Positions 992-57,346 of a DNA stretch of 60,829 bases are shown one piece after another; position 1 is the first letter of the stretch; each line of letters begins with the position of its first letter. The DNA comes from Deltaproteobacteria bacterium (GTDB lineage Bacteria; Desulfobacterota; GWC2-55-46), in contig JACRNO010000057.1 in the NCBI GenBank assembly GCA_016234855.1, positions 1 to 60,829 on the forward strand, read 5' to 3'. The notes below the pieces were generated by a model. That model did no database searches and was not told the origin of the DNA. It saw only the letters and a list, made by a program, of their open reading frames with translations. Both the position numbers and the translations under genes were made by a program.

Positions 992-1065
992 GTAGCTCTG
1001 GGCTTCGGCCCTGAGATGAACGCCATTTCAACCGCCAACAAGACCAGACCTGAACCTCTGAACGC
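992..1065. repeat. Degenerate GTAG-type REP pair (REPIN)
   Basis: gtagctctgggcttcggccctgag ... cagacctgaacctctga; a decayed version of the 1345-1414 family. Confidence 0.55.
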
Positions 1066-1080
1066 ATCAGCCGCAAATTA

Positions 1081-1251
1081 CTACCCGCCGCTGACTTCCA
1101 TTATAAACAGGATAAACGCCATTGACGGACGCCGGGACGAGTCCCTCATGGCGAAGTGGATGCCCTCGAACTTCCAACCGTCCTTGACCGTAGCGTTGAT
1201 GGCAGCCTCCATATCAACGTCGGTCACGGTAGCCAGCTCAACGACCTTGTA
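1081..1251 (-). pseudogene. DUF4177-like small protein with no start codon at its conserved N-terminus
   Basis: Frame reads YKVVELATVTDVDMEAAINATVKDGWKFEGIHFAMRDSSRRPSMAFILFIMEVSGG*. An in-frame TAG lies four codons upstream of YKVV with no start codon between. Confidence 0.6.
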
Positions 1252-1344
1252 TAGGGCGGGCTATGCCCGCCAAAAGATAAACCTGCGCCGCCTGTAAACG
1301 GCTGGCGCACCCAGCCTACTCATGACATCACGAAATAGGTTTTT

Positions 1345-1414
1345 GTAGCTCAGGCCTTCAGGCCTGATGTCTCGCGTCCCGCTGCCATTTATCAGGGCTA
1401 AAGCCCTGAGCTAC
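1345..1414. repeat. GTAG-type REPIN
   Basis: GTAGCTCAGGCCTTCAGGCCTGA - spacer - TCAGGGCTAAAGCCCTGAGCTAC: two palindromes in inverted orientation. Confidence 0.85.
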
Positions 1415-1497
1415 AGCTCGCTGGATGTGCCCGACCTACCAAACCCTGCCAATTAGACATCTGATATACAACGGGCGTCCAGCCCACGCAAAATCCC

Positions 1498-5197: not shown

Positions 5198-5216
5198 ACA
5201 GGATGCCCCCTATTCT

Positions 5217-5286
5217 GTGGCGTCAGGAGTTTCCTCCTGACGCCCTGCCAAGCCGTATGCAGTAGGGAGGAAACTCCCGACTGCAC
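5217..5286. repeat. REP-like inverted palindrome pair
   Basis: gtggcgtcaggagtttcctcctgacgcc ... gtagggaggaaactcccgactgcac. Confidence 0.6.
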
Positions 5287-5300
5287 GAAAACCAGCCACC

Positions 5301-6833
5301 TCACCGCCCTCTGTAATACTCCGCCATCGCCTCTGCAAGCGCGGGCACGGTGTACGCCTTTGGCATCACGTCCACGTTAAGGCCGAGCTCACGGGCGGTG
5401 TCGGCGGTTATGGGGCCTATGCAGGCGACTTTGACTCCGGCCATCAATCGGGAAAGCTCCTGCTTTGTAAAATTCTTCGCAAAGTTCGTGACGGTCGAAG
5501 ACGAGGTAAACGTCACCATGTCGATTAAGCCGTCAGCCAACTCTTTCTTCAAGACCCCGGCCTCTTTGCGCGGACGTATCGTCTTATATGCCGGGCATAC
5601 GTCTATCTTTCCGCCGAGCCGCTTTATCTCAACAGGCAATATCTCGCGCGCCTGCATGGCGCGGGCAAGGAGAAAGCGCCTGCCCTTTATCGACTTCTTG
5701 CCAAGCGCCGAGATTATCGCCTCTGCCCGGTACTCCTTTGGCGTAAGGCTGACGTTAAGCCCGAGGGCTACTATCGCCTCTTCGGTGCGCGGCCCGATAG
5801 CACAGAGCTTTACGCCTTTTAACTCCCTTAAATCATAACCAAGAAAACGCAGCCGCTCAAAGAAATATTTTACACCGTTTACGCTTGTAAATATAGCCCA
5901 GTCATAAGACGAAAGCCTCTTTATGGCCGCGTCAAGCGGCTTCCACGCGGGCGGGGCAACAGTCTTAATCGTCGGAAATGTCACAGGCTCCGCCCCCTCT
6001 GCCTCAAGGAGCGCGGTAAACGCGCCTGCCTGCTCAAGTGCGCGCGTTACAACGATGCGCCTGCCGAAGAGCGGCTTGGTCTCGAACCAGTTGAGCCTCT
6101 CGCGCAGCCCCACCACGTCCCCGACCACGGTAATGACCGGCGGCTTTATGCCTGCCGTCTCGGCAAGCGATATGATGTTGTCCAGCCTGCCAACGACGCA
6201 CTCCTGCTTGGTGAGCGTGCCCCAACGAACAAGGGCGACCGGCGTTGCGACGTCCCAGCCGTTGGCCATGAGCTTGGTCATGATAAACGGCAGGTTCTTC
6301 CACCCCATAAGGAAGACGAGCGTGCCGCGCCCGGTCGAGAGCTTGTCCCACGCGATGTTTGAACGCTCCTTCAGAGGGTCTTCCTGCCCGGTTACGAAGG
6401 TAACGGACGAGGCAAGGTCCCTGTGCGTAAGGGGTATACCGGCGTAAGCGGGCGCGGCCACCGCCGAGGTCACGCCCGGGACTATCTCGAACATAAGCCC
6501 GGCCTTGCGTATCTCCTCAGCCTCCTCCGCGCCCCTGCCGAAGACAAACGGGTCGCCGCCCTTTAGCCGGACGACCAGCTTGCCCGCCTTTGCCTTCTTT
6601 ATAATGAGGGCGGTTATCTCGTCCTGCGCTATCGTTTTGGCAGAGCCTTTCTTGCCGACGTAAATGTGTTCGCTGCCCGGCTTTGCATATTCAAGCAGAC
6701 GCGCATTGGCGAGGAAATCATATATTACGCAATCGGCGCGGTTCAAGACCGCGACGGCCTTTACCGTTATAAGACCGGGGTCGCCCGGCCCTGCCCCGAC
6801 CAGATATACCTTTACGCCCTTCTTCTCAGCCAT
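5301..6833 (-). CDS. cobA: Fused uroporphyrinogen-III C-methyltransferase / uroporphyrinogen-III synthase (CobA-HemD)
   Basis: VYLVGAGPGDPGL and RLKGGDPFVFGRG, then a HemD domain (FTSVNGV, TFTSSSTV, CIGPITA). Confidence 0.95.
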   Translation of the reverse strand: MAEKKGVKVYLVGAGPGDPGLITVKAVAVLNRADCVIYDFLANARLLEYAKPGSEHIYVGKKGSAKTIAQDEITALIIKKAKAGKLVVRLKGGDPFVFGRGAEEAEEIRKAGLMFEIVPGVTSAVAAPAYAGIPLTHRDLASSVTFVTGQEDPLKERSNIAWDKLSTGRGTLVFLMGWKNLPFIMTKLMANGWDVATPVALVRWGTLTKQECVVGRLDNIISLAETAGIKPPVITVVGDVVGLRERLNWFETKPLFGRRIVVTRALEQAGAFTALLEAEGAEPVTFPTIKTVAPPAWKPLDAAIKRLSSYDWAIFTSVNGVKYFFERLRFLGYDLRELKGVKLCAIGPRTEEAIVALGLNVSLTPKEYRAEAIISALGKKSIKGRRFLLARAMQAREILPVEIKRLGGKIDVCPAYKTIRPRKEAGVLKKELADGLIDMVTFTSSSTVTNFAKNFTKQELSRLMAGVKVACIGPITADTARELGLNVDVMPKAYTVPALAEAMAEYYRGR

Positions 6834-9214: not shown

Positions 9215-9283
9215 GTAGCTCAGGGCTTTAGCCCTGAAAATGGCCACTGGACGCGTGATATCAGGCCTAAAGGCATGAGCTAC
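9215..9283. repeat. GTAG-type REPIN
   Basis: GTAGCTCAGGGCTTTAGCCCTGA...TCAGGCCTAAAGGCATGAGCTAC; spacer resembles the reverse complement of the 1345-1414 spacer. Confidence 0.85.
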
Positions 9284-11426: not shown

Positions 11427-11506
11427 GTAGTTCAGGGCTTTAGCCCTGAACATAATGGCTGAGCGTAACGCATGTGTCAAAAGACTCAGGCCTGAGGGCC
11501 TGATAC
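11427..11506. repeat. GTAG-type REPIN
   Basis: gtagttcagggctttagccctga...tcaggcctgagggcctga; TACATAAGGC repeated at 11407-16 and 11504-13. Confidence 0.75.
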
Positions 11507-14881: not shown

Positions 14882-14956
14882 GTAGCTCAGACCTTTAAGT
14901 CTGATTTTGTCAGCCGCTAAACGGGCGTTCATATCAAGGCTAAAGCCCTGAGCTAC
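14882..14956. repeat. GTAG-type REPIN
   Basis: GTAGCTCAGACCTTTAAGTCTGA...TCAAGGCTAAAGCCCTGAGCTAC. Confidence 0.85.
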
Positions 14957-15085
14957 GAAAAATCCGCTATGCGGCAGAAACATCATGAAAGGCCTTTGAC
15001 CTTTACGCAAGTCAAAGATTATCCGTCAGGCCAAAGCCCTTAAGGGCCGCACAGCCTGACGTTAGAAAAGGGGCTAACAGAGTTC

Positions 15086-19899: not shown

Positions 19900-19916
19900 T
19901 CCCGGACGCATATCTA

Positions 19917-20000
19917 AGGAAGTTCTGATTAATTCTACCAAAATGTCATTCTGAGCGCGTGAGCCTTTAGCCCTGAGCGTAGCGAATGGGGAAGAATCTT
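19917..20000. mobile_element. Truncated MITE left end (CTGATTAATTC family) followed by a TGTC-type REP arm
   Basis: TA|aggaagttctgattaattc then tgtcattctgagcg...gaagaatct; same start as the 39140 element. Confidence 0.6.
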
Positions 20001-20043
20001 GTCTTTAAGAGAATCAAATAATTACGGGATGTCATTTATATTA

Positions 20044-20265
20044 GGGAACCTCTGATTATTGACATCTGCAAAAGCAATGCAATGACGGCGCTCATGCTTA
20101 AACGAAAACGAGTATTCGTCATGCCCGAATGCTTCTATCGGGCATCCAGCGTCTTTATCGGGGGCGATAAAAAGATAAAGACGCTGGATTCCCGCTTAAG
20201 ACACGCGGGAATGACGGGTTGATGGGCTGCATTACTTATACAAAAGTCAATAATCAGAGCTTCCC
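20044..20265. mobile_element. 222-bp MITE carrying a CGTC-type REPIN (20117-20216)
   Basis: TIRs GGGAACCTCTGATTATTGAC / GTCAATAATCAGAGCTTCCC (19/20 match), TA on both flanks; internal cgtcatgcccgaa...gcgggaatgacg. Confidence 0.85.
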
Positions 20266-22111: not shown

Positions 22112-22445
22112 TCAGGGCTAATCCCCCGACCCACGCCAAGTGGCGTGGGTACCCCGCCCCCTTTTTCAAAGGGCGATGTTTTAAAAATCCCCACTTTGAA
22201 AAGGGGGGCAAGGGGGGATTTTGAGAGAGGTGCGGGGTCGTGAGCAATTGAAGGGCATTCGTAAAAGACCCACTTTAAAATCCCCCTTAGTCCCCCTTCT
22301 ACGAAGGGGGATGTTAAAAATCCCCTTTTTTTTCAAAGTGAGAGGTTTAAGCCCTGAGTCTTCTGTTAGACTTTGGTTAGAGGGTTGTCAGGGCTAAAGC
22401 CCTGAGCTACGGGTAATGACTTTGTATCTCAGACCTTCAGGTCTG
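22112..22445. repeat. Composite repeat: GTAG REP split by a 228-bp C/G-tract repeat insertion, plus further GTAG REPs
   Basis: tcagggcta|22121-22348|aagccctgag; intact tcagggctaaagccctgagctac at 22388-22410; gtatctcagaccttcaggtctg at 22424-22445. Confidence 0.75.
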
Positions 22446-22535
22446 TATCCTCGCGATGACAACCGTCGAATCGATCATAGATTCCCCAAGACGTGTGGCT
22501 GCGCAATAGCGGGCCGATCAAGCCGCAAACCAGAA

Positions 22536-28573: not shown

Positions 28574-28636
28574 TCAGGGCTGAAGCCCTCCACTACTCAA
28601 GACAACGCCTGTGTAGCTCAGACCTTTAGGTCTGAG
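28574..28636. repeat. Two GTAG-type REPs in back-to-back arrangement
   Basis: tcagggctgaagccctccactac and gtagctcagacctttaggtctgag. Confidence 0.7.
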
Positions 28637-30416: not shown

Positions 30417-31185
30417 GATGAAGTCGGAGGGGAGGAAGATCCCCGTGCTGACCGCTTACGACTACCCGATGGCGAGGATACTCGACGACGCGGGCATCCC
30501 CATCCTCATGGTCGGAGACTCCTGCGGCATGGTAGAGGCCGGACGCGAGAATACCCTCACCGTCACGCTCGACGAGATAATATACCATACGCGCTCGGTA
30601 GCCAGGGGCAGGACCGCGGCCGTCGTGGTAAGCGACATGCCGTTCGGCTCATACCAGACGAGCGTAATCGAGGCGCGCAGGAACGCGGCAAGGCTCGTTG
30701 CCGAGGGCGGGGCCGAGGCCGTAAAGATTGAAGGCGGCAGAAGGTCGCTGCGGGCGATAAAGGCCGTCATCGAGATGGACATCCCGGTCATGGGGCATAT
30801 CGGCCTGACCCCGCAGTCCGTCCACGCAATGGGCGGCTACAGGGTCCAGGGCAAGAGCAGCGAGGCGGCCGAAAAAATCACCGAAGACGCGCGCGAACTG
30901 GAAAAGGCCGGGGTCTTCGCAATCGTGCTGGAAGGCATCCCCTCTCAACTCGCAGGGGATATCACCGCCGAGCTGGGCATACCTACCATCGGCATAGGCG
31001 CGGGCCCAAACTGCGACGGCCAGGTCCTCGTCCTGAACGACATGCTCGGGCTCGATTCGACCGTAAAGACGCCGAAGTACGTCAAACGGTACATGGACCT
31101 TAAGAATATCATCTCATCCGCGGTCGTTGAATACGTCATCGACGTGGAAGCGGGCAGGTTCCCGTCCAAGGAACAGTCGTATTAG
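30385..31185 (+). CDS. panB: 3-methyl-2-oxobutanoate hydroxymethyltransferase
   Basis: LTAYD, MVGDS, KIEGG, GHIGLTPQS, IGIGAG..CDGQVLV. Confidence 0.96.
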   Translation: MKKITVPDIVKMKSEGRKIPVLTAYDYPMARILDDAGIPILMVGDSCGMVEAGRENTLTVTLDEIIYHTRSVARGRTAAVVVSDMPFGSYQTSVIEARRNAARLVAEGGAEAVKIEGGRRSLRAIKAVIEMDIPVMGHIGLTPQSVHAMGGYRVQGKSSEAAEKITEDARELEKAGVFAIVLEGIPSQLAGDITAELGIPTIGIGAGPNCDGQVLVLNDMLGLDSTVKTPKYVKRYMDLKNIISSAVVEYVIDVEAGRFPSKEQSY

Positions 31186-31347
31186 CAGGCTGTTGAAAAA
31201 CTCTCAACACGTCATTCCCGAGGTCTCTGTCCCTGACTAATACATTCGGGGACGAATCCAGTCTCTGTAAAATCAACAACTTATGGATTCCCGCTTTCGC
31301 GGGAATGACGACATGGAGTGGCAACGCAGTGTTTTTCAACAACACGT
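31185..31347. mobile_element. MITE (TGTTGAAAAAC-type ends) carrying a CGTC-type REPIN (31210-31310)
   Basis: TA|gcaggctgttgaaaaac ... gtttttcaacaacacgt|TA; internal cgtcattcccg...gcgggaatgacg. Confidence 0.75.
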
Positions 31348-31371
31348 TAGGCAGGACTACGGATGAAAAAA

Positions 31372-39139: not shown

Positions 39140-39448
39140 AAGAAGCTCTGATTAATTCCACCGAGGTTGTCATTCTGAGCGCAGCGAAGAATCTCGTCTC
39201 TCGGCGAATCAACTACTCACGAGATGTAAATTATCCGTAAGAACGACGGATAATTTATAAGTAATGATAAAGCCGTTTATATTCGCTTGTTTTAACCCGC
39301 AAGAAGACGCGGGCTTAAACAAGCTGTGCTTAACTTCGTCGCTTGTGCGCTCGTGTGCGCTAACGTTATGTCTTCGGCGCAACGTTGTGTCTTTGGCGCC
39401 AAAAACGCTCATCAGAATGACAGAAAAAAGAATAAATCAGAGTTTCCT
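39140..39448. mobile_element. 309-bp MITE (CTCTGATTAATTC family) carrying a TGTC-type REP pair and extra hairpins
   Basis: TIRs aagaagctctgattaattc / gaataaatcagagtttcct (16/19); internal tgtcattctgagc (39168)...cagaatgaca (39422). Confidence 0.75.
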
Positions 39449-40427: not shown

Positions 40428-40434
40428 GGCGGTT

Positions 40435-42976: not shown

Positions 42977-43011
42977 GCCGTGTTACAGCGCCTCGACCTC
43001 CGTAAGGACTC

Positions 43012-43761
43012 ATGAACAACCGCAGGGAAATCCATATACGCGAAGATGCGGCTGAAGTGGCAACCGATGCCGCCAGGCTCTTTTCCGAACTCTGTTTCGA
43101 CGCCATAGCGCGCGACGGGTCTTTTAGCGTCGCCCTGTCAGGCGGCGCGACGCCTGAGGCGCTCTTCAACCTGCTTGCCGGGCCTCCGTACGCCGATAAG
43201 ATACCCTGGGACAAGGTACACCTCTTCTGGGGAGACGAACGCTGCGTGTCACCTGACCACCCTGAGAGCAATTACAAGATGGCCTTTCAGAGCCTCGTGT
43301 CAAAATTGAATATACCGCGGGAGAACGTCCACCGCATGCAGGGCGAGGCCGAGCCGCAGGCTGCGGCAGCGGCATATGAGGACGAACTCCTGCTTCATCT
43401 CGCGATATCGGGCAAGCCAGGGCTCGACCTCGTATTCCTCGGCCTTGGCAGCGACGGTCACACCCTCTCATTATTCCCCGGCTCGCCGCTCCTTGCCCAT
43501 GGCGATGGCGGCAGGCTCGTTGCGGCGGGCTTTGTCGAGGCGGTCCGCGCCTATCGCATAAGCCTTACCCTTACCGCCGTAAATAACTCCGATACCGCCG
43601 TCTTTCTCGTCACGGGCCAGCCAAAGGCCGAAATCTTAAAAAAGGCGCTTGAGGCAGGCGTAGGACGGCGCAAATACCCGGCAACGCTGATAAGGCCGCG
43701 AGGCAGGCTCGTCTGGCTCGTTGACAAGGCGGCGGCCCGGCTGCTTTCAGGAGTTGCTTAA
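43012..43761 (+). CDS. pgl: 6-phosphogluconolactonase
   Basis: ALSGGATP, FWGDERCV, LGLGSDGHTLSLFPG. Confidence 0.94.
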   Translation: MNNRREIHIREDAAEVATDAARLFSELCFDAIARDGSFSVALSGGATPEALFNLLAGPPYADKIPWDKVHLFWGDERCVSPDHPESNYKMAFQSLVSKLNIPRENVHRMQGEAEPQAAAAAYEDELLLHLAISGKPGLDLVFLGLGSDGHTLSLFPGSPLLAHGDGGRLVAAGFVEAVRAYRISLTLTAVNNSDTAVFLVTGQPKAEILKKALEAGVGRRKYPATLIRPRGRLVWLVDKAAARLLSGVA

Positions 43762-43860
43762 AAACTTTCAACACGTCATTCCCGAGGTCTCTGTCAGGAA
43801 TCCAGTATGCCTGGAGACGCAAAAAGACTGGATTCCCGCTAAAAACACCCGGGAATGACG
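43750..43860. mobile_element. Second, degenerate copy of the 31185 MITE left end with a CGTC REPIN (43774-43860)
   Basis: aaaaactttcaacacgtcattcccgaggtctctgtc is nearly identical to the sequence at about 31196-31231. Confidence 0.7.
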
Positions 43861-43993
43861 TATAAGGGAATCTGACATTACTGAGGCCTGCCCTCGAATG
43901 GTTTAGTCGGGGATATTAATCTCCTCAATGACATACAGATAGCGAACCAGCCCAACCTCACCATAATCAGGCATGACACATCGTATCCCCCTC

Positions 43994-44028
43994 AAAAAAA
44001 AGAGGCGGCCCGTGCAAGGCCGCCTCTT
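43994..44028 (-). terminator. Rho-independent terminator of the cytochrome cluster
   Basis: AAGAGGCGGCC / GGCCGCCTCTT stem running into a U-tract on the minus strand. Confidence 0.85.
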
Positions 44029-44059
44029 GAAGAAATATACTTGTCGCGCGTCAAGCGCC

Positions 44060-44425: not shown

Positions 44426-44431
44426 GGCCGC

Positions 44432-45097: not shown

Positions 45098-45264
45098 TGT
45101 TTCCTCCTTTGGTATCCGCGCGCATGGACGGGTTTTAAACTCTTATGCCGCCCTCTTTGCCGCGCACAGCATGATTTTTTAATGCATCAGAACTTTCTTA
45201 TCCGCCCCGGGCCCGCAACCGTTGTCTATTGGCGCGGGGCAATCTACCGGACGTCCCTTGAATC

Positions 45265-45624
45265 CTAAGGAGTGGCAGCTTCAGGGTTGTACGAGTGGCA
45301 CCTGTCGCAATAGAGCGGTTCCCATGCAATCAGCCCGTTGTGGCACCTGCCGCAGAACTGACCGTCCATTATCTTGGACATGTTGATGTCGTTCGCGCCC
45401 TTCTTGATGATAAAGATGTCTTCGTGACAGACCTTGCATTTGAATCTTATCCTGTGGAACCAATGCGGGAAGACCACAGGGTTCACGCCCGCCTTTTGCA
45501 TGCTCTCAGACTTGCTGTTAAGGACAATGTCCGCGTATTCCGCGCTGCCTGACGACGCATAGAACAGGCCCGCGGCAACAGCGACACAAGTCATGAGGAG
45601 AATCAAGAAGCTTACTCTCTTCAT
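45265..45624 (-). CDS. c7-type triheme cytochrome c
   Basis: Signal peptide, FPHWFH, CKVCH, NDINM, CGRCH, CDRCH. Confidence 0.88.
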   Translation of the reverse strand: MKRVSFLILLMTCVAVAAGLFYASSGSAEYADIVLNSKSESMQKAGVNPVVFPHWFHRIRFKCKVCHEDIFIIKKGANDINMSKIMDGQFCGRCHNGLIAWEPLYCDRCHSYNPEAATP

Positions 45625-45969
45625 CGGTTGCCTCCTTAGAGATTTGGTAATTTGCCCGGCTGACCTTCAAATGTAGTGCTGATTGTGCTAATTATAGCCC
45701 GTATCATAGCCCTCCTGTCAAGTTAAAAATTAAAAAAACTTAATCTTTACAGATCGCGCCACCTGCCGCAGCAGCGGGAACCGATTGCAAGGTCTGCGCT
45801 ACAGGCACACGATTGCCCATGGCGCGCACCGTACCACCGAACCGCCATGCTTATTGAAAATGTGTAAAGAGCTGTGGTATAAATACTGGATTCGCTTTTT
45901 TCACCGCCTGTGCCATTACCAGGGGCGCAAGCGGGGCAAGAAATTTTTTGTATTTCAGGAGGTCTTGGA

Positions 45970-47772: not shown

Positions 47773-47805
47773 CGAGGTTGGGATTTACACATCCCCCTTT
47801 CCTAA

Positions 47806-47956
47806 GAGACCTTTGCATAAGTCAGATTTATGTAGCGCAGGCCTTCAGGCCTGCGTCTTTGTCGCAGCGTTCGCTAACGAATAGCAGGGCTAAAGCCCTG
47901 CGCTACGCGCACCGTATACTTCTTTTCTTGAGAAAACACAGTTATGCAAAGGTCTC
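47806..47956. mobile_element. 151-bp MITE carrying a GTAG REPIN (47832-47906), with an 8-bp target duplication
   Basis: TIRs GAGACCTTTGCATAA / TTATGCAAAGGTCTC (15/15); TTTCCTAA at 47798-47805 and 47957-47964. Confidence 0.88.
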
Positions 47957-48113
47957 TTTCCTAAAGGGGGATTGAGGGGAATTATCCCCCCCCTGACAAG
48001 GCGGGCAAGGGACTCCCCCCTTTCCTAAATGGGGGGGGGACTGAGGGGGATTATCCCCCTCCCCTGACAAGGCGGGCAAGGGACTCCCCCCTGATAAGGG
48101 GGGCAAGGGGGGT
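47957..48113. repeat. Tandem ~65-70 bp units of the CCCCCTTT/AAAGGGGG repeat family
   Basis: Two units sharing tttcctaaa...attatccccc...cccctgacaaggcgggcaagggactcccccc, plus a partial third. Confidence 0.85.
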
Positions 48114-48117
48114 TTGT

Positions 48118-48708
48118 TTGATACGCCAAGAAAAAATTGACATTGAACCTATACGATGCGGCTGGGTGAGCGACGACCCGCTCTATATCGCGTACCACGA
48201 CACCGAGTGGGGCGTGCCCGTGCATGACGACCGGCGGCTCTTCGAGTTCCTCATCCTTGAAGGCGCGCAAGCGGGCCTCAGTTGGCTTACCATCCTGAAA
48301 AAGAGGGAGAATTACAGAAAGGCCTTTTCCGGGTTCGACCCTGCGAAGGTGGCCCGATTCAGAGAGGAGAAGATTCAACGCCTCCTGCTCGACCCCGGCA
48401 TCATCCGCAACCGGTTGAAGGTCAGGGCGGCCATAAACAACGCGGCTGCGTTTTTAAAGATACAAGATGAGTTCGGCTCGTTCGCAGAGTACAGTTGGCA
48501 ATTCGTAGGCAACAAGCCCATAAAAAACACCTTCAAAACCATCAAACAAGTCCCCGCCACAACCCCTGAATCCGACTCATTCAGCAAGGACTTGAAAAAG
48601 AGGGGTTTTAAATTCGTCGGCTCGACCATCATCTATGCCCACATGCAGGCGGTGGGCATGGTCAACGACCATACGAAGGATTGTTTCAGATACAAGGAAT
48701 TGAAGTGA
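48118..48708 (+). CDS. tag: DNA-3-methyladenine glycosylase I
   Basis: RCGW, YHDTEWGVP, LEGAQAGLSW, IIRNRLK, GFKFVG, GMVNDH..C. Start uncertain. Confidence 0.95.
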   Translation: MIRQEKIDIEPIRCGWVSDDPLYIAYHDTEWGVPVHDDRRLFEFLILEGAQAGLSWLTILKKRENYRKAFSGFDPAKVARFREEKIQRLLLDPGIIRNRLKVRAAINNAAAFLKIQDEFGSFAEYSWQFVGNKPIKNTFKTIKQVPATTPESDSFSKDLKKRGFKFVGSTIIYAHMQAVGMVNDHTKDCFRYKELK

Positions 48709-48775
48709 AACCTGTAGGTTGACGCAGTGTAACCCGCCAATCGTAATTACAGGACGCGGTGCCTCCCGGAGGCGC

Positions 48776-48795
48776 TCCCACGCCAGAGCGTGGGA
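48776..48795. repeat. Isolated REP-like palindrome
   Basis: tcccacgc-caga-gcgtggga. Confidence 0.5.
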
Positions 48796-48816
48796 ACAAG
48801 GAATTAGGAAAACATC

Positions 48817-49377
48817 GTGATTTACAAGACAAGACAAAACAGATTTTTGTGCACAATTCTCATATTAGCCACATGTATGGGAATTTTCTTTTCACAGTCC
48901 GCAGCAGCATCCGATACCATTGAGAAATCCGGAGATGCCCTTGTGGTGTTAATACCGGCAATCGCATACGGCACAACATTCTACCTGGATGACGACGAGG
49001 GGCGCACGCAGTTTTACAAATCATTTTTTACAAATTTAGCCGTAACGCAAGGCTTGAAATCCACAATTAAAAAAGAACGTCCTGACGGATCAGACAAGTC
49101 ATCATTTCCATCCGGTCATACTTCAATAGCATTTCAAGGCGCGACATTTCTTTATAAAAGATATGGGTTTAAATACGGCATCCCTGCATATATCGGAGCG
49201 GCTTTTGTTGGTTATAGCAGAGTTCAAGCGGACAAACACTACATTGAAGATGTTCTTGCGGGAGCGGCAATAGGCACGATTAGCAGTCTTTATTTTACTG
49301 AACCATATAAGGGGGTTACGGTAACTCCAACTGCCAATAACGGTTATTACGGCATAACCGTAAGTAAAAATTGGTAG
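48817..49377 (+). CDS. PAP2-family phosphatase (AT-rich)
   Basis: KSTIKKERP, FPSGH and SRVQADKHYIED motifs; signal-peptide-like N-terminus. Confidence 0.9.
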   Translation: MIYKTRQNRFLCTILILATCMGIFFSQSAAASDTIEKSGDALVVLIPAIAYGTTFYLDDDEGRTQFYKSFFTNLAVTQGLKSTIKKERPDGSDKSSFPSGHTSIAFQGATFLYKRYGFKYGIPAYIGAAFVGYSRVQADKHYIEDVLAGAAIGTISSLYFTEPYKGVTVTPTANNGYYGITVSKNW

Positions 49378-49414
49378 CAATACATAGCGATAACATCAAC
49401 TGAGGCTGACTCCT

Positions 49415-49556
49415 GCGGGTTCAAGTTTGCAACTTGAACCAAAAAGTTAGTATCAGCGACGCAGATATTCGCAACCACAATCATTTTTATAATTACGAAT
49501 CAAAAAGGAGCAGGTTACAAAACTGCTCCCACCGTAGGTTACAAACCTGCTCCCGC
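49415..49556. repeat. REP-like inverted pair with a locally duplicated right arm
   Basis: gcgggttcaagtttgcaacttgaacc ... ggagcaggttacaaaactgctccc ... aggttacaaacctgctcccgc. Confidence 0.65.
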
Positions 49557-49639
49557 TGTAGAAGAAGAGACCGGAGAAGGCCGCCGCAACCATTGGCCGC
49601 ACCGCGCCGCCCACCCCGTCTTACCGCGCATATCTCTGA

Positions 49640-49858
49640 TTATTGCGCGTGCTTCCACTGTAAGGTAAGTTTTTTATGTGAAGCGGCGCAGTCCCGGAGA
49701 TAGAGATTTATTAGCGTCTGGTAAGGGACACCGACCTCTTTAGCAAGCCCCTTGAAGTAGCTGATGGTCTCCTCGTCCATACGCAAAGTAACCTGCCGCT
49801 TGAGCCTGCCGGCATAAGGGTTTTTCTGCGCCTTGGAAAAATCGTACTCTTTTCTCAT
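49640..49858 (-). CDS. BrnA-family antitoxin
   Basis: MRKEYDFSKA..NPY, QVTLRMDE, PYQTLINLYLRDC. Confidence 0.88.
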   Translation of the reverse strand: MRKEYDFSKAQKNPYAGRLKRQVTLRMDEETISYFKGLAKEVGVPYQTLINLYLRDCAASHKKLTLQWKHAQ

Positions 49859-49863
49859 TTCAA

Positions 49864-50151
49864 TCACCTTTCCTTATAACATTTCTGCTCGGCCCTGGCA
49901 GCCTTTCGGGCGGAAATGATCCTGATCACCTCATCGCTCTCCCGATAACAGTGACAAACCACCAATATTTGAAGGTTTGCGCTTAGACCAAGAAGAATAA
50001 AACGGTCTTCTTCGCCGGAGTGATCCGGGTCATGTATCAGCAAGGCATTTTCATCAACGAAGACCGTGCGGGCTTCGTCAAACGATATTCCATGCTTCTT
50101 TTGATTTGACGAGTCCTTTCCCTTGTCCCAGTCAAAGGCGATGTCTGCCAT
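49864..50151 (-). CDS. BrnT-family toxin
   Basis: FDWDKGKDSSNQKKHGISFDEA, EDRFILLG, IRIISARKA. Confidence 0.92.
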   Translation of the reverse strand: MADIAFDWDKGKDSSNQKKHGISFDEARTVFVDENALLIHDPDHSGEEDRFILLGLSANLQILVVCHCYRESDEVIRIISARKAARAEQKCYKER

Positions 50152-50186
50152 ATTTACATTGTAAATATATAATACTTATTTGTCAA
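50150..50186 (-). promoter_or_regulatory. Leaderless brnTA promoter with a palindromic operator
   Basis: TTGACA - 17 nt - TACAAT - 6 nt - ATG; perfect ATATTTACA-N-TGTAAATAT palindrome at 50150-50168. Confidence 0.8.
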
Positions 50187-50209
50187 TCCCTTATCGTTTC
50201 TACGCCAAA

Positions 50210-50470
50210 GCCCCCCTCACCCTGCCCTCTCTCCGAGGGGAGAGGGGGTTTTCTCCTCCCCTTATTTAAGGGGCGGGGCCCCCGTTGCGCGCGCAGCGCA
50301 ATGCAACGGGGAGTGGGGAGGGGTTAATCTTTGCAGCCACAATGCTTGCTTGTTGCTTCGCGCACGCCCAGCTTAACTCCCCCTGCCCCCTCTTTTACAA
50401 AGAGGGGGGAGTTTCGCGCCCCTTGACAACACAGTTGCTCTCCCCGAGGGGAGAGGGTTCTTTCCCCCTT
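50210..50470. repeat. Cluster of C/G-tract palindromic repeats
   Basis: ccctctctccgaggggagaggg, ccccttatttaagggg, cccctcttttacaaagagggg, ctctccccgaggggagaggg. Confidence 0.75.
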
Positions 50471-50496
50471 GTATAATGCTTGAGAAGTATCTTACG

Positions 50497-51457
50497 TTAA
50501 TAGATACTGATAATCATGCGCAACAGGATGTGACAGCCCGATTCCCCCTTGGTCGCACGAGCCGAGCGCATGACCGCGAAGACGACCCAGAAGCTGAAGG
50601 CTATGACAATACTGAGGCCGATGCCGGCGGCTATGCCGCCGTGCCTGCCCGTCTTCAGGGCAAACGGGATGCCCACGAGTATCATTATGAAGTTGACGAG
50701 CGGGAAGGTAATCTTGCCGTAGAGGTCGATCTTGAACCGGGCCGCGTTATAGCCCTCGCTAACGAGCCTGTTGACGTAATTCCTAAGCTCGAAAAAGCCC
50801 ATGTTCCTGTATGCGCTCTCTGCCGAGGCAAGCTCGTCCGGCGGCATGACCCCGGGCAGGACAACGTCCTTGCCTTGCGTCTTATCAGCCTTTCCATCCG
50901 GCGTAAAACTCCAGACCTCGGCCGCATCAGCCTTCCATGCGCCGTCCTTCCAAACGGCAACGCGCGCGTTCACCCTGCCTGTGACGGCAAACGGCTTGCC
51001 GACGATATAGAGCGTCACGCCGTTAAGCGCGTTCTTTTGCGTATCCATCTGCCGCACGTTCAGCAACCCGCCCTCGGTGCGCATCCAGATGCCGGATGCG
51101 CCAAAGCCCTGACCGTGCACGCCCATACGCTGACGCCGGAAGGCGTCCACCCTGGCCTGCGCCGCTGGCACGACCAGCTCGTTCATCAGGATAACGGCAA
51201 CGCTCAAGACAAGCCCGGCCGCAAGCATGGGCATGAGCGCGCGCAAGAGGCGCACGCCGCCGGATTTAAGGGCCGTGATTTCGCCGTGCCTCGACAGGCT
51301 GCCGAGCGTAAGGAGCGTTGCGAGGAGCGTTATGCTTCATCAGGCCGCCCATGTTCTCGAAGACGTCTATCATGAGAAAGAGGACGACGAACGCGGCCAT
51401 AGCCATCGCCAGAAGCTTGGCAAACTCCGTCAATATGTAGCGCTCAAGTCTTTTCAT
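50497..51457 (-). pseudogene. lptG: LPS export permease LptG, frameshifted by an internal deletion and 3'-truncated
   Basis: MKRLERYILTEF...MKHNAP, then a frame change near 51325 into LATLLTLGSLSRHGEITALKSGG...KITFPL...GIPFAL. Family resemblance is lost after FAVMRS (about 50562). Confidence 0.8.
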
Positions 51458-51506
51458 GGTTTGCCTGATGGCCCGGCGGATGTGTGCAACTTGTTCTGCG
51501 CATCTT

Positions 51507-51647
51507 GTAGCCCAGGGCTTCGGACTTCCCCCTTTGAAAAAGGCGCTAAAGACACAATGTTAGCGCACAAGGGGGCGTGGTACCCACGCCAAGCGGCGTG
51601 GGTCAGGGGATTAGCCCTGATAAGTCAGACTTAAAGGTCTGAGCTAC
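51507..51647. repeat. GTAG REPIN whose left palindrome is split by a 91-bp C/G-tract insertion
   Basis: gtagcccagggctt|51521-51611|tagccctga...tcagacttaaaggtctgagctac. Confidence 0.78.
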
Positions 51648-51681
51648 AGTCTAACAGAGGAGCCTGAATGTCACCGTTGTG

Positions 51682-51700
51682 GAATTAATCAGAGATTCCT
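51682..51700. mobile_element. Orphan MITE right end (CTCTGATTAATTC family)
   Basis: gaattaatcagagattcct|TA. Confidence 0.6.
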
Positions 51701-51727
51701 TAAATTCCCCCAACCGTCCGCCCGTCT

Positions 51728-52390
51728 TCAACTACCCCTGATGCCGGGTCTGCGCCCCCTGTCAGCCCAGCCCCCGAATATTATCAGGAGCGCCTGCGCC
51801 AGGCCCACATAGGCGACGACCGTTGCGTTCGGCGGCACGGAGCCTGCAAACTGTACTGCGTAAATAATGACGAGCACCCCGGCGAACGCCCATATCCCGT
51901 ACCTGCCGATAGCGTTAATCGGCCGCGTCGTGCCAAGATAAAGCGACAACCCGACCGCGAAAATCAGACCCTCGACAAGGGCCGTTGCCCATGGATGGTT
52001 CCACAGCCCCATGCCGGCAAAGCTCGCGTTGGAGATGCCGATTGGCAGGTCCGGCTTATGGACTATGGCGTCAAGTAGCCAGTGACTGAGAACCCCGGCT
52101 CCCAACGCGAGCGCCGTATAAAAACGCCCCTTTAAAAGGCGGCAGATTACAAAAAGAGATACTGCCCAGAATACCGTTGCAAGGAGGCTGTGCGTAAACG
52201 GATAATACTCGAATACCAGCGGCGTAACCCTTGTCGCGCCCGGCGTTATCGTCACCCGCTCGATGCCGAGGAGTATGAAGACCGGCCAGATGATATCGAG
52301 CCAGAGCGCGGCGAGAAGGAGCGTGCCAAGGGATGTATTGGGCGCAAACCGCTTCAAGGCAAGCCCTGCGCCGTAGTGACCTATGAACAT
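51728..52390 (-). CDS. Membrane protein, metal-dependent hydrolase-like
   Basis: MFIGH, LDIIWP, PFTHSL, SHWLLDAIVHKPDLP, GLWN; multiple TM helices. Start moved to ATG 52390. Confidence 0.8.
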   Translation of the reverse strand: MFIGHYGAGLALKRFAPNTSLGTLLLAALWLDIIWPVFILLGIERVTITPGATRVTPLVFEYYPFTHSLLATVFWAVSLFVICRLLKGRFYTALALGAGVLSHWLLDAIVHKPDLPIGISNASFAGMGLWNHPWATALVEGLIFAVGLSLYLGTTRPINAIGRYGIWAFAGVLVIIYAVQFAGSVPPNATVVAYVGLAQALLIIFGGWADRGRRPGIRGS

Positions 52391-54323: not shown

Positions 54324-54632
54324 ATGAAACCTCGAATGAAGAGATACGCCGTTGGCGCAGTCGCCCTGGGCCTCGCCATTTACGGGGTCTTCGGCAGCGG
54401 CGAGCTGCTTGACCTCTTGCGCGCGCAGAAAGAGCGCGACACCGTCCTCGACGAGATAAAACGCATCGAGGCGGACAACTCCGGCCTTGACGAGAAGGTT
54501 CGCCTCCTTAAGACCGACAGACGTTACATCGCCCACGTGGCGAGGGTCGAACTCGGCATGATAGGCAAAGACGAGATAGTCTACAGGGTCAAGACCCCCG
54601 GCGGCGACGCCGGCCAGAAGCCCGCACGCTAA
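54324..54632 (+). CDS. ftsB: Septum formation initiator FtsB/DivIC
   Basis: One TM helix, coiled coil, ARVELGMIGKDEIVY; GGAGG SD; TTGACA-17-TACTTC upstream. Confidence 0.85.
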   Translation: MKPRMKRYAVGAVALGLAIYGVFGSGELLDLLRAQKERDTVLDEIKRIEADNSGLDEKVRLLKTDRRYIAHVARVELGMIGKDEIVYRVKTPGGDAGQKPAR

Positions 54633-54674
54633 CCCGCACCGGCGCAACGACTCTCAACGCACACCCTGCGAGAT

Positions 54675-55508
54675 ATGATGAAAAAGGCCCTTAAGCTTGC
54701 CGGCATACAGATGACCTGCGCGCCCGAGACCGGGAAGAACCTTGCAAAGGCCGCAAGCCTCATCGAGATAGCAGCCGGCGAGGGCGCAGGGCTCGTTGCC
54801 ATGCCGCAACTATTCTCCACCCAATGGTTTCCCGCCACCATCGACAAGGCCCGCTTCTCGCTTGCCGAGACCGGGGACGGCCCCACCGTCACAGCGCTGC
54901 GCGAGTTGGCCGCAAGGCTCGGCGTGGTCGTCGTCGCGCCCATATACGAGGAAGACCGCGGCACACGCTTTAACACCGCGTTTGTCATAGACGCCGACGG
55001 TACGATTGCGGGCAAGTACAGGAAGATGCACGTCCCTGCGCTCCCCCTGTGGGAAGAGAAGACCTACTTCAGCCCCGGAGACCTCGGCTTTCAGGTCTTC
55101 AAGACCAGGGTGGCGAATATCGGCGTGCAGATATGCTGGGACGTCTTCTTCCCCGAGGGCGCGCGCATACTGGCCCTCGGCGGGGCGGAAATCATCGTCG
55201 CGCCCACTGCCTCGGCCTTCATGCACTCTGCAGCGCGATGGGAGCGCGCCATAGCCGCCTCGGCGCAGAGTAACGGCCTCTTTATCCTGCGCGTCAACCG
55301 CACGGGCGCGGAGGCGCATCAGGAGTTCTACGGCAGGAGTTTTTGCATGGGGCCTGACGGCGAACTCGTCTCTCCACCGTCCGGCGGACAGGACGGGGTC
55401 GTGCTCGTGGACATCGACCTCGGCGCCATCGCGGATGCGCGATGCGACTGGACGTTTTTAAAGGACAGAAGGCCTGAAGAATACACGGAGATAACGCAGA
55501 AAAAATGA
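54675..55508 (+). CDS. Carbon-nitrogen hydrolase (amidase/N-carbamoylase-like), catalytic Glu replaced by Gln
   Basis: YRKMHVP, EKTYFSPGD, ICWDVFFPE; PQLF in place of PELF. Confidence 0.88.
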   Translation: MMKKALKLAGIQMTCAPETGKNLAKAASLIEIAAGEGAGLVAMPQLFSTQWFPATIDKARFSLAETGDGPTVTALRELAARLGVVVVAPIYEEDRGTRFNTAFVIDADGTIAGKYRKMHVPALPLWEEKTYFSPGDLGFQVFKTRVANIGVQICWDVFFPEGARILALGGAEIIVAPTASAFMHSAARWERAIAASAQSNGLFILRVNRTGAEAHQEFYGRSFCMGPDGELVSPPSGGQDGVVLVDIDLGAIADARCDWTFLKDRRPEEYTEITQKK

Positions 55509-57223
55509 AATCGCGCCACAACATCAAGGAGATCATAAACTCGGCGGTTCAGGCCGCCAGGGCCGAAGGCCTTATCAAGATCGGGACGCTGCCGGATATC
55601 GTAATCGAAAAATCACGCAAGGACGAGTTCGGGGACTTTGCCACGAATATCGCCATGGTCCTCGCCCCGCTTGAAAAACGCCCGCCGCGCGAGGTCGCCG
55701 CCATTATCGCCGCTAAGATTCAGGATGCGAAAGAGACCACCGGAGTCCCGCTCGTGAAAAAGTGCGAGGTCGCGGGCCCCGGGTTCATAAATATATTTCT
55801 CATGGAGACCTACTGGCTCTCCATACTCAGGGATATACTCGATAAGGGCGAGGCGTTCGGCAGGTCTGAGGCAGGCGCAGGCAAGAAGGTCTTGCTTGAG
55901 TTCGTCAGCGCCAACCCCACCGGACCGCTCCACATAGGCCACGGCAGGGGCGCGGCAGTGGGAGACGCAACCGCCCGCATAATGGCCGCGGCCGGATATG
56001 CAGTAACAAAAGAATTTTACATAAACGACATCGGCAAGCAGGTCTTGACGCTCGGCAGATCGGTCTATATCCGCTACCTTCAACTGCTTGGCAAAAAGAT
56101 TGAGCTGCCAGAAGACTCTTACAAGGGCGAGTATATAAAAGACGTTGCCATTGAATTCCGCAAAGAGAACGGCGACAATTTCAATAACGGGATATTGGAT
56201 ATTCAGGGTAATAACCGGCAGATTGAGCTTCTTCAGCCTTTCATAGATTTCGCAAAGAAACGTCTGCTTGACGATATCAAGACCGACCTTGCCGCATTCG
56301 GCGTAGCCTTCGACAACTGGTTCAGCGAGGCCTCACTTTACAAGCCTGAAAACATCGTAGACAAAGCCATCGAGACGCTGAAAAAGGACGGGTTCGCGCG
56401 CGAGGAAGACGGCGCACTCTGGCTGAAGACCATGGAGCTTGCGAACGACGACAAGGACAGGGTCTTAGTCAAGGCGGACGGGTCAAAGACCTATCTGGCC
56501 TCTGACGTGGCTTATCATAATGAAAAGGCCAAACGCGGGTTTGACATCCTCATAAACGTCTGGGGCGCGGACCACCACGGGTACGAGGCGCGGATACGCG
56601 CGGCTCTGAAGGCATTCGGCCATGACCCCACCATCCTGAAGATAATCTTCATCCAACTCGTCGCGCTCCTGCGTAACGGCGCTCCCGTTGCCATGGGCAA
56701 ACGCGAGGGCGAGTTCGTCACTCTCAGGCAGGTCATGGACGAGGTCGGCGCGGACGCCTGCCGTTTCTTCTTCCTCATGCGTAAGGCGGACGCGCAACTC
56801 GACTTCGATCTTGAATTGGCCAAAAGCCAGGCCCCTGAAAACCCGGTCTACTACGTCCAGTACTGCCATGCGCGCATCAGGTCGATTATAGACTATGCGA
56901 AAGAGCAAGGCGTGAACGTGCCCGCAGACACCGAGGACGAGGCGCTTGCGCTGCTCACGAGCAAGGACGATATCGACCTTATAAAACACCTTGCGCTCTT
57001 TGAGGAGGTCGTCGAGAAGAGCGCCTTAGCCATGGAGCCGCACCGCGTGACATATTACCTCACCGAGCTTGCGGGCATCTTCCACCCGTACTACAACCGT
57101 AACCGCATCGTCACGGACGACGCCGGGCTTACGGCCGGCCGCCTCTTATTGTGCACGGCAACCGCACAGGTCATCAAAAACGGGCTGGGCCTGCTCGGGG
57201 TATCCGCACCGGACAAAATGTAG
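55505..57223 (+). CDS. argS: Arginine--tRNA ligase
   Basis: AGPGFIN, EFVSANPTGPLHIGHGRG, WGADHHGY, NPVYYVQYCHAR, LLGVSAPDKM. Confidence 0.97.
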   Translation: MKSRHNIKEIINSAVQAARAEGLIKIGTLPDIVIEKSRKDEFGDFATNIAMVLAPLEKRPPREVAAIIAAKIQDAKETTGVPLVKKCEVAGPGFINIFLMETYWLSILRDILDKGEAFGRSEAGAGKKVLLEFVSANPTGPLHIGHGRGAAVGDATARIMAAAGYAVTKEFYINDIGKQVLTLGRSVYIRYLQLLGKKIELPEDSYKGEYIKDVAIEFRKENGDNFNNGILDIQGNNRQIELLQPFIDFAKKRLLDDIKTDLAAFGVAFDNWFSEASLYKPENIVDKAIETLKKDGFAREEDGALWLKTMELANDDKDRVLVKADGSKTYLASDVAYHNEKAKRGFDILINVWGADHHGYEARIRAALKAFGHDPTILKIIFIQLVALLRNGAPVAMGKREGEFVTLRQVMDEVGADACRFFFLMRKADAQLDFDLELAKSQAPENPVYYVQYCHARIRSIIDYAKEQGVNVPADTEDEALALLTSKDDIDLIKHLALFEEVVEKSALAMEPHRVTYYLTELAGIFHPYYNRNRIVTDDAGLTAGRLLLCTATAQVIKNGLGLLGVSAPDKM

Positions 57224-57265
57224 GGAAGGTTTTTGCGCCGCGCCCAAATCCATTTCCAAGACTTC

Positions 57266-57346
57266 GTAGCGCAGACCTTCAGGTCTGCATTCCTGCCGCA
57301 GCCTGCCGTTGCAAAAAAGGGCTGCAGGGCTAACGCCCTGCGCTAC
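57266..57346. repeat. GTAG-type REPIN
   Basis: GTAGCGCAGACCTTCAGGTCTGC...GCAGGGCTAACGCCCTGCGCTAC. Confidence 0.85.

Follow-up and report, generated by a model that had tools for sequence, protein, structure and literature searches.

Nested short non-coding repeats in a Desulfobacterota genome: a layered deposit that probably reflects a few guest-host preferences

[quoted passage not shown] It makes up the complete contig C51 in a metagenome-assembled genome (MAG) of 2,304,927 bases in 95 contigs (56.9% G+C, completeness 94.9%, contamination 1.5%), and the public runs that contain the stretch are labelled as groundwater metagenomes. In our view, short non-coding repeats of four or more kinds were probably deposited here in layers, the nesting arising from a few guest-host preferences and not from a coupling of REP-associated tyrosine transposases (RAYTs) with DDE transposases. 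The guest in one such pair is C5T3, a non-coding mini-hairpin of 35-42 nt, and its host is one subtype (G-type) of the GTAG-tagged repetitive extragenic palindromes (REPs).

Repeat families were collected across the whole genome by K-mer assembly and pattern scans; a strict scan for hairpins following a tetranucleotide was too unspecific for use. Our own rough gene calls (1,963 genes, 82% coding) left 412,126 intergenic bases, probably an overestimate because such calls miss some genes. Repeats with at least three other copies fill 107,753 bases, or 23%, of this intergenic space, and 29 segments of the window are duplicated elsewhere in the genome.

The nesting is pair-specific, not general. 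C5T3 lies in the loops of G-type REPs 28 times, where between 0.11 (loops as the target) and 1.27 (whole REPs) insertions would be expected (P ≤ 1.8e-29). MITE-C, one of three MITE families, scored 7/20 against 0.13 expected (P = 3.8e-11) in a strict hairpin-flank test that demanded a C-run followed by T on one side and A followed by a G-run on the other, and 14 of its 20 pairs had such a flank on at least one side; MITE-A and MITE-B scored 0/41 and 0/19 in the strict test. These P values assume independent events and depend on the estimated intergenic length. Judged by outer flanks that lie inside other repeats (MITE-A 2/41, MITE-B 0/19, MITE-C 5/20), there was no excess over the 23% repeat share, and MITE-A and MITE-B fell below it. 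Hairpins of the palindrome families F, P and W were almost never hit, with 116 intact copies and four candidate splits, three of which lack a recognised guest, leaving at most one insertion by a recognised element. A preliminary description of the window, made from its letters, had raised both nesting beyond what intergenic space predicts and a general preference for hairpins as targets. Both hold for particular pairs, C5T3 in G-type REPs and MITE-C in C5T3-type hairpins among them, and not in general: the F, P and W hairpins are almost spared, and the outer flanks of all three MITE families show no excess.

Mini-hairpins in the loops of GTAG REPs

GTAG REP heads, GTAGCNCAGRSC with at most one mismatch, number 26 in the window, where 4.0 would be expected, and none of 100 shuffles gave as many as 26. 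Genome-wide there are 195 intact GTAG hairpins, 84 with the stem CAGGGC (G-type) and 111 with CAGRCC, and nearly all REPs are extragenic, two pattern matches of each type falling inside called genes (out of 127 for G-type and 108 for C-type). The inverted doublet of REPs forming a hairpin (REPIN), 75 nt long, has 51 BLAST matches at ≥80% coverage in the genome, and six doublets lie in the window (Table 1).

The C5T3 unit has the arms CCCCCTTT..AAAGGGGG, and its ends, CTTCCCCCTTTGAAAAAGG..GGGGGACTGAGGGGGATTT, were found 102 times genome-wide, about 70 of these outside REPs and in unrelated contexts. It occupies the loop of 28 of the 112 G-type REP hairpins, the other 84 being intact, and of none of the 111 intact CAGRCC-type hairpins. 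In 6 of the 28 split REPs the right arm was missed by the search pattern, and the single C5T3-bearing head among 185 of the CAGRCC-type pattern is actually a mutated G-type head. Orientation was uniform in all 27 copies scored, the C-run end adjoining the GTAG arm; five apparent inverted copies proved to be pattern artefacts. Empty loops read GGGC-TTTA-GCCC and filled loops GGGC-TT-AAACTTCCCCC...GGGGGA-TT(T/A)-GCCC, which places the insertion at the centre of the loop, with an ambiguity of up to 2 nt and no clean duplication. The unit has a hairpin at one end, and the bases upstream of it often end in AA, with no fixed tetranucleotide.

The inserts are graded in size from 31 to 399 nt. Those of 31-42 nt consist of C5T3 alone, at 70 nt the unit T29 is added, those of 95-158 nt comprise C5T3, T29 and a P palindrome, and inserts of 194 and 209 nt (C11:2785 and C12:968) build nests of four levels in which a REP holds C5T3, C5T3 holds MITE-C and MITE-C holds a REPIN. 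The preliminary description had placed three insertions of the window in hairpin loops, at 22121, 47806 and 51521, and reading of the sequence bears out all three, as a 232-nt composite, a MITE-C with direct repeats and a 95-nt insert, respectively.

The 28 split REPs sit in REPINs of at least six spacer classes and have different unique flanks. A comparison of the 45 nt after the right arm, made for 21 split REPINs against 84 unsplit ones, placed an unsplit copy nearest in 11 cases and a split copy in 6, with 4 ties. Some split REPINs scored 34-41/45 to unsplit siblings against 21-26 to their best split copy; C43:4805 and C49:1865 form one near-identical split and unsplit pair (41/45), and C75:75287 is closest to the REPIN beside a RAYT gene, with which it shares the same odd extra half-REP. 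We read these sibling pairs as several independent gains or precise losses, to whose count the copying of composites may have added. Independent gains, taken with the single orientation, point to a strand-specific mechanism.

T29, a unit of 25-29 nt, has 182 matches genome-wide, also in tandem arrays, with 7 of the 182 inside called genes. It follows the C5 arm 38 times, always in the same orientation, and is the guest in 16 of 31 candidate split C5 hairpins.

A 60-nt perfect palindrome at C60:218-277 runs through a GTAG arm, TTAA, a C5T3 hairpin, TTAA, the second arm and CTAC, and is the only case with a clean TTAA on both sides of the guest. None of the three Y1 transposase genes in the genome is tied to C5T3. 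IS110 as its source was rejected, the match on C54 being a truncated tail in an unrelated frame. That remnant (C54:6990-7144) is about 50 residues of the C-terminus of an IS110-type transposase, joined in frame with an unrelated open frame of 407 aa, and a second short IS110-type match lies at the end of contig C72.

MITE frames, their cargo and the candidate enzymes

Three types of MITE end had been proposed for the window, and all are real and multi-copy across the genome. MITE-A has the terminal inverted repeat (TIR) GGAAGCTCTGATTAAT, with 119 TIR matches, 41 pairs and a modal size of 141-142 nt. MITE-B forms 19 pairs, with the TIR TGTTGAAAAACTC, truly TAGCAGGCTGCTGAAAAAC, which is not specific enough for counting, and MITE-C, of 148-418 nt, has the TIR GAGACCTTTGCATAA, with 61 matches and 20 pairs. 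Overall the paired elements span 81 to 418 nt and have no coding capacity. Identical 4-nt flanks border 29 of the 41 MITE-A pairs (TTAA 12, TTAG 6, CTAA 6), against 0/41 for the next 4 nt outward. Nine of the 20 MITE-C pairs have clean direct repeats of 8-10 bp (seven of 9 bp) that differ between copies, and in six of these nine the midpoint of the duplication is no more than 1.5 nt away from that of a C-run/G-run palindrome. For MITE-B a target duplication was not demonstrable among its 19 pairs.

The cargo of these frames is mostly of another kind than the GTAG REP. MITE-A holds H2 doublets in 36 of 41 pairs, H1 with H3 in 2 and GTAG REPs in none; MITE-B holds H1 in 8 of 19 and again no GTAG REP; MITE-C holds GTAG REPs in 5 of 20, the others carrying H1, H2, H3 and T29. 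The MITE-C form with a REPIN has 8 BLAST copies at ≥80% length, and the five REPIN-bearing pairs have a single backbone in common, so that one capture suffices to explain them. Of the H3+H1 core, five copies stand alone, two have TIR-A1 frames and one has a TIR-C frame, and cores and frames have therefore been combined in several ways. The claim that all four complete MITEs of the window carry a REP pair stands in so far as each contains an inverted pair of hairpins; the GTAG REPIN is confined to the element at 47806-47956, those at 20044 and 31183 carrying CGTC-tagged doublets and that at 39141 a TGTC-tagged doublet with other modules. Likewise, MITE ends act as vehicles for REPs in 5/20 MITE-C pairs, and in no MITE-A or MITE-B.

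The H1, H2 and H3 hairpins are not RAYT-type REPs. H1 is built of CGTC, ATTCCCGC, a loop of 4-9 nt, GCGGGAAT and CCA, with the consensus CGTCATTCCCGcG..GGgA, and H2 and H3 have the GTCAT head in common with it. In Di Nocera (2013; PMC3733652), GTAG and CGTC superfamilies are distinguished, CGTC-1 is equated with the Neisseria dRS3 repeat (a stem of 8-9 bp beginning with AT, and a CCA tail) and no dedicated transposase is given for CGTC repeats. A later paper ties NTS/SRM hairpins to small GIY-YIG genes, the Ssn nucleases (PMC11893778). The published SRM pattern has 75 matches in our genome and 7 in a reversed control, 47 of the 75 being H1 (GTCATTCCCG hairpins); three matches fall in the window, inside MITE elements, at 20216, 31310 and 43860. 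H1 thus fits CGTC-1/dRS3 and SRM, and H2 flanks a GIY-YIG gene. This gene, on C72 (14536-14826), is a single-domain open reading frame (ORF) of 96 aa (PF01541, 50.3 bits; NCBIfam families all below cut-off), with TGTC-tagged H2 hairpins immediately upstream and several downstream, and a second GIY-YIG gene is truncated by a contig end. The stretch C72:14480-15060, in which the gene with hairpins on either side is followed by a MITE-A end, resembles the NTS-ssnA-NTS layout described for Ssn nucleases.

For the GTAG REPs a candidate enzyme is present in the genome. REP and REPIN elements are said to go together with RAYT (TnpA-REP) transposases of the Y1 HUH type. Three Y1_Tnp loci were found, scoring 99.5, 110.1 and 80.3 bits against NF047646 ('REP-associated tyrosine transposase', cut-off 80). 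The RAYT on C88, a 161-aa ORF at 23392-23874 (99.5 bits), lies between GTAG REPs (23327-23392 on one side, 23897-23919 on the other) in the classic RAYT arrangement, and may cleave and join single-stranded REP DNA. The RAYT on C93 (177 aa) is bordered by inverted F hairpins, GTTCCCAAGC..GCTTGGGAAC (37 intact copies of F, control 0), and the Y1 transposase gene on contig C5 by a low-copy hairpin. Just upstream of the C93 gene (C93:14940-15800), a CGTC-tagged H1 hairpin has an F hairpin in its loop (about 15075-15135), another guest-host pair. In a scanned collection with one genome per species, the best homologue of the C88 RAYT is 43% identical and belongs to another phylum, as do its fellows, and the loci of 15 distant homologues lack the GTAG REP of this genome.

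No enzyme matching the MITEs was found. Profile searches of the genome with PF01609 (DDE_Tnp_1), PF05598 (DUF772), PF13358 (DDE_3), DDE_Tnp_1_5 and DDE_Tnp_1_2 returned no DDE transposase, and no TIR pair at the spacing of an insertion sequence (IS) encloses a transposase gene. Among 31 genomes compared, PF13737 and PF13586 had no matches, and the PF01609 matches were limited to G001 (two weak loci) and G029 (one), none with TIR-A, TIR-B or TIR-C nearby. MAGs often lose IS copies, and an absence of autonomous IS does not follow from such searches. Insertion by IS5-group elements duplicates 4 bp (YTAR), that by IS903-group elements 9 bp; we take the 4-bp TTAA/TTAG/CTAA duplication to liken MITE-A to the IS5 family. 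The window itself holds no cognate enzyme, as had been stated from its letters, and the search for enzymes that was suggested with that statement yielded the REP-flanked RAYT on C88 and no DDE transposase with matching ends.

Proposed history, rival explanations and known systems

The reading that we prefer, a deposit built up by guest-host preferences, can be set out as follows. The GTAG REPs and REPINs would be served by the RAYT on C88, and the CGTC/TGTC hairpins H1, H2 and H3 would belong to a dRS3/NTS-like superfamily, H2 together with the Ssn-like GIY-YIG enzyme on C72. Paired, these hairpins would make up the palindromic core in MITE-A, MITE-B and most MITE-C. The MITEs would have been made by DDE transposases encoded outside the assembly, with a duplication of 4 bp for MITE-A and of 9 bp for MITE-C, the latter centred on the CCCCCTTT..AAAGGGGG apex, and one lineage of MITE-C would have captured a REPIN once and then spread it. 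C5T3 would insert in one orientation and exclusively into G-type REPs, at the apical loop (TT^TA), and T29 units, P palindromes and MITE-C may then have landed in it, to a depth of up to four levels. The sequence itself shows the anatomy and copy numbers of the repeats, their target duplications and orientation, the filled and empty sibling REPINs, and the RAYT and GIY-YIG genes. We infer from it the pairing of enzymes with repeats and that C5T3 moves autonomously, and favour a strand-specific mechanism on single-stranded DNA, of the HUH-Y1 or the Ssn kind. More tentatively, C5T3 and T29 may possibly form an undescribed class of ultra-small mobile hairpin modules, lacking TIRs and duplications, that integrate strand-specifically into apical loops and are driven by a RAYT (Y1) or Ssn (GIY-YIG) enzyme of the same genome. 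If so, such modules would self-assemble into 'Russian-doll' palindromes.

Relatives bear on this history. The exact G-type REP has 110 matches in this genome and 155 in G005, a member of another genus with some 74% identity in a conserved gene. The other 29 genomes essentially lack it, among them the nearest, G001, which belongs to this genome's own genus (about 79% identical in a conserved gene, its contig stopping right after that gene). The presence of the REP in G005 and its absence from G001, with no close RAYT in G005, suggests horizontal spread, loss or unassembled genes. The junction of REP and C5T3 has 26 matches here and none in 30 relatives. C5T3 has 103 matches in G000, 4 in G001, 3 in G005, 19 in G006, where the REP is lacking, and 1 in G010. 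For TIR-C the corresponding counts are 46, 5, 4, 0 and 19, and for TIR-A 101, 54, 23, 4 and 303. Among those listed, the 303 MITE-A ends of G010 are mostly perfect copies, many at contig ends, and no IS5-type transposase was detected there; this could be a recent burst of orphan MITEs, or IS copies could have been lost from the bin.

Several observations weigh against the preferred reading. G005 carries 155 copies of the same REP and its best match to the C88 RAYT is 28% identical. Split REPINs cluster somewhat, an unsplit nearest neighbour being found in 11-15 of 21 cases where about 17 (~81%) would be expected if labels were random, and the restriction to one REP subtype, one junction (GGGC-TTAAA-CTTCCCCC) and one orientation is what the copying of a founder composite would also give. 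H2, the hairpin beside the GIY-YIG gene, has zero matches to the published SRM pattern, as has H3, and H1 was not observed to adjoin any GIY-YIG gene. Eleven of the 20 MITE-C pairs have diverged flanks or none and no clean duplication, and the MITE enzymes have to be assumed because no DDE transposase with matching ends was found in this genome or at the three PF01609 loci of relatives. Finally, the genome is a short-read MAG, and public contigs aligned to it are interrupted at repeats.

The clustering and the uniform junction lead to the rival that we take most seriously, although we think it rather unlikely, namely that C5T3 entered a G-type REP once or a few times and is itself immobile, the RAYT having copied the composite REPIN and recombination having diversified it. 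This would also accord with the exclusive splitting of G-type REPs and with a junction confined to this genome. The spread of split REPs over at least six spacer classes, the unsplit siblings that are closer to some split REPINs than any split copy, and the many C5T3 ends outside REPs speak for repeated gain or loss instead. The preliminary description had proposed a coupling of RAYT- and DDE-type transposition, with MITE ends as vehicles for REPs and hairpins as generally safe targets. The REPIN-bearing MITE-C does let a REPIN ride on a DDE element, the H3+H1 core does recur alone and in two kinds of frame, and each paired MITE of the window does hold a hairpin doublet. We nevertheless consider the coupling improbable and saw no sign of it: MITE-A and MITE-B carry no GTAG REPs and show no excess nesting, the REPIN-bearing MITE-C copies have one backbone in common, the cargo is mostly CGTC-tagged and not of the RAYT type, the F, P and W hairpins are almost spared, and a DDE enzyme was not found in the genome.

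The composites could also be chimaeras, created where the short-read assembly of the metagenome ran through short repeats, a suspicion invited by a MAG of 95 contigs. Many of its contigs begin or end within 400 nt of a MITE end, C25 terminating exactly on TIR-C, and the clustering of contig ends near MITE ends indicates that the repeats limit assembly. The contigs of the probable source run break at repeats, which are covered by collapsed pieces of high depth. We find this explanation scarcely credible, given that direct repeats of unique sequence border MITE-C and MITE-A copies, that the 28 split REPs have differing unique flanks and that many composites are only 31-160 nt long. In assembled public contigs aligned to 32001-52000, the stretch has a depth of about 130-150 in the probable source run; one public contig covers 41971-43910 with zero differences, and another, at a depth of 128.8, which is the organism's own, passes across the junction at 51523. 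Only slightly less remote is the view that the hairpin stacks are structured elements kept by selection for a function in transcript ends, mRNA stability or the control of DNA uptake, growing by slippage and not by transposition. Their almost exclusively intergenic position and the tandem arrays of T29 agree with it, and such functions have been described for REPs and NTS (PMC3733652, PMC11893778). We hold it to be very unlikely in view of the target duplications at MITE-A and MITE-C, the patchy distribution among relatives (the REP in 2 of 31 genomes, C5T3 abundant in one), the lack so far of the same composites at corresponding spacers of distant relatives and an Rfam scan of the window that returned zero family matches.

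Most of the pieces have known counterparts, and the description of the whole as an undescribed system was too strong in view of earlier work (PMC1525189, PMC3733652, PMC11893778). The GTAG elements resemble described REP/REPIN-RAYT systems in the tag followed by a GC-rich hairpin, the inverted doublets, about 200 extragenic copies and a single REP-flanked RAYT gene (PMC3733652). They differ in that a quarter of one REP subtype holds a foreign mini-hairpin in its loop, in that a full REPIN also lies within a TIR-bearing MITE, and in a closest RAYT, with one genome per species scanned, that is only 43% identical. The H1 stem and tail and the 47 of 75 SRM matches are shared with CGTC-1/dRS3 (PMC3733652) and NTS/SRM-Ssn (PMC11893778), and the 96-aa GIY-YIG gene with related hairpins may correspond to the Ssn gene. 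Here, however, it is the H2 variant, outside the published pattern, that adjoins the GIY-YIG gene, and the doublets are mostly enclosed by the terminal repeats of three MITE families. Di Nocera (2013) mentions in passing REP dimers within longer palindromes in three species, which that paper did not study in detail (PMC3733652). Those dimers are likewise enclosed by inverted repeats and mixed into mosaics, whereas in our genome one core is found in several frames, the nesting reaches four levels and the frames carry target duplications, which makes them true MITEs. As for IS5-family MITEs, the likeness lies in the 16-18-bp TIR and TTAA/TTAG/CTAA duplication of MITE-A and in the 15-bp TIR and 9-bp duplication of MITE-C, and the difference in the lack of any IS5-type transposase found in this genome.

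The closest parallel to C5T3 in target choice is found among larger elements. Insertion sequences of five IS families are described as targeting REPs specifically (Tobes & Pareja, 2006; PMC1525189), and IS1397 and IS621 as REP-targeting elements (Delihas, 2011; PMC3184786). Like these elements (IS1397 and ISKpn1 of IS3; IS621, ISPpu9 and ISPpu10 of IS110; ISPsy8, ISPa11, ISRm19/22), C5T3 lands precisely in one type of REP, which is restored when the flanks are rejoined. It is a 35-42-nt non-coding hairpin where they are IS of 1-2 kb, has no usual terminal inverted repeats, no clean duplication and no matching transposase that we could find, and is not a member of this group, as it encodes no IS3- or IS110-type transposase. 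Set beside IS200/IS605-type elements, which have no TIRs or duplication, a single orientation relative to a short target, end hairpins and a Y1 transposase, C5T3 showed a uniform orientation (27/27), no clean duplication, a hairpin at one end and no fixed tetranucleotide. Word searches of the open-access literature, which are no proof of absence, found no description of a mini-hairpin entering REP loops or of a four-level nest. The component pieces are of known kinds, and what is new is their combination and the behaviour of C5T3, perhaps also T29.

One small genome brings together three repeat-enzyme systems, namely GTAG REPs and a RAYT, CGTC/SRM hairpins and a GIY-YIG nuclease of Ssn-like type, and DDE MITEs that are orphans, with landing rules that can be read from the sequence. 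The filled and empty sibling REPINs offer a testable case of a tiny element in a REP loop, which bears on how REP-like repeats are made and moved. The CGTC repeats had no known enzyme in 2013 (PMC3733652), and the link between H2 and a GIY-YIG gene fits, in a distant lineage, the Ssn proposal of 2025 (PMC11893778).

Features of the window

The repeats of the window are collected in Table 1. All three palindrome families that had been named from the letters are present, the GTAG heads being joined by CGTC/TGTC hairpins at 20044, 31183, 39141 and 43755 and by CCCCCTTT/AAAGGGGG units at 22119-22350, 47790-48129 and 51519-51613; F, P, W, E and T29 are further families beyond that list.

Table 1. 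Repeats and composite elements of the window, with positions counted from its first nucleotide (TSD, target-site duplication).
Feature	Position	Strand
Solitary GTAG-tagged REP, variant stem CTGGGC..GCCCTG	992..1014	+
REPIN: CAGGCC-type REP and inverted G-type REP	1345..1414	.
W-type palindrome pair CGTCAGGAG..CTCCTGACG; 14 genome copies at ≥80% length	5208..5303	.
REPIN	9215..9283	.
Solitary G-type REP	11427..11449	+
REPIN	14882..14956	.
MITE-A fragment: left TIR and TGTC-tagged H2 hairpin, without right end	19915..20040	+
MITE-A1, TIR GGGAACCTCTGATTAT (ends GGGAACCTCTGATT), CGTC-tagged H3+H1 doublet; hairpin ending at 20216 matches SRM	20044..20265	.
G-type REP hairpin, degenerate head, arms CAGGGC 22113-22118 and GCCCTG 22351-22356	22113..22356	-
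232-nt composite in REP loop: C5T3 units, P palindrome and another repeat	22119..22350	
Intact G-type REP 22388-22410 (minus) and CAGACC-type REP 22424-22446 (plus)	22388..22446	.
Two REPs tail to tail	28574..28635	.
MITE-B, TIR TAGCAGGCTGTTGAAAAAC (ends TGTTGAAAAAC), CGTC-tagged H1/H4 doublet; SRM match ending at 31310	31183..31349	.
MITE-A, 307 nt, ends AGAAGCTCTGATTAAT: H2 (TGTC-tagged doublet), D palindrome TTATCCG..CGGATAA, T29 units	39141..39447	.
MITE-B fragment, one TIR, CGTC-tagged doublet; SRM match ending at 43860	43755..43870	+
Additional GTAG REP head, not in the preliminary description	45791..45802	-
C5T3 unit CATCCCCCTTT..AAAGGGGGATTGAGGGGAATTA interrupted at the apex by MITE-C; TSD TTTCCTAA at 47798-47805 and 47957-47964; inside CCCCC..GGGGG	47790..47983	+
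MITE-C, TIR GAGACCTTTGCATAA, 151 nt	47806..47956	.
Complete GTAG REPIN within MITE-C	47832..47906	.
Array of more C5T3-like units (family D5)	47984..48129	+
Cluster: E-type CCTCCCCTT..AAGGGGAGG and related C/G-run palindromes	50207..50480	.
REPIN; G-type REP (arms 51513-51518 and 51614-51619) with 95-nt loop insert; partner REP ends at 51647	51507..51647	+
Insert: C5T3 with one T29 unit and P palindrome CCCACGCC..GGCGTGGG	51519..51613	+
Solo MITE-A end GGAATCTCTGATTAATTCC, then TTAA	51666..51703	-
REPIN, GTAGCGCAG subtype	57266..57346	.

An additional repeat at 49410-49538 consists of the hairpin GGGTTCAAGTTTGCAACTTGAACC and GGAGCAGGTTACAAA units, its first part having about 29 copies; in related strains of runs X3 and X4, positions 49445-49535 are replaced by different letters. 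In practice such repeats both fragment assemblies and generate false ORFs. The ORFs at 983-1297 and 39264-40427 run through repeats (the REP at 992 and the MITE-A interior at 39264-39447, respectively) and are probably false calls or have false starts. Two small overlapping ORFs just ahead of the MITE-A at 39141 (38613-38840 and 38837-39115) have a toxin-antitoxin-like layout and may be regarded as a candidate pair.

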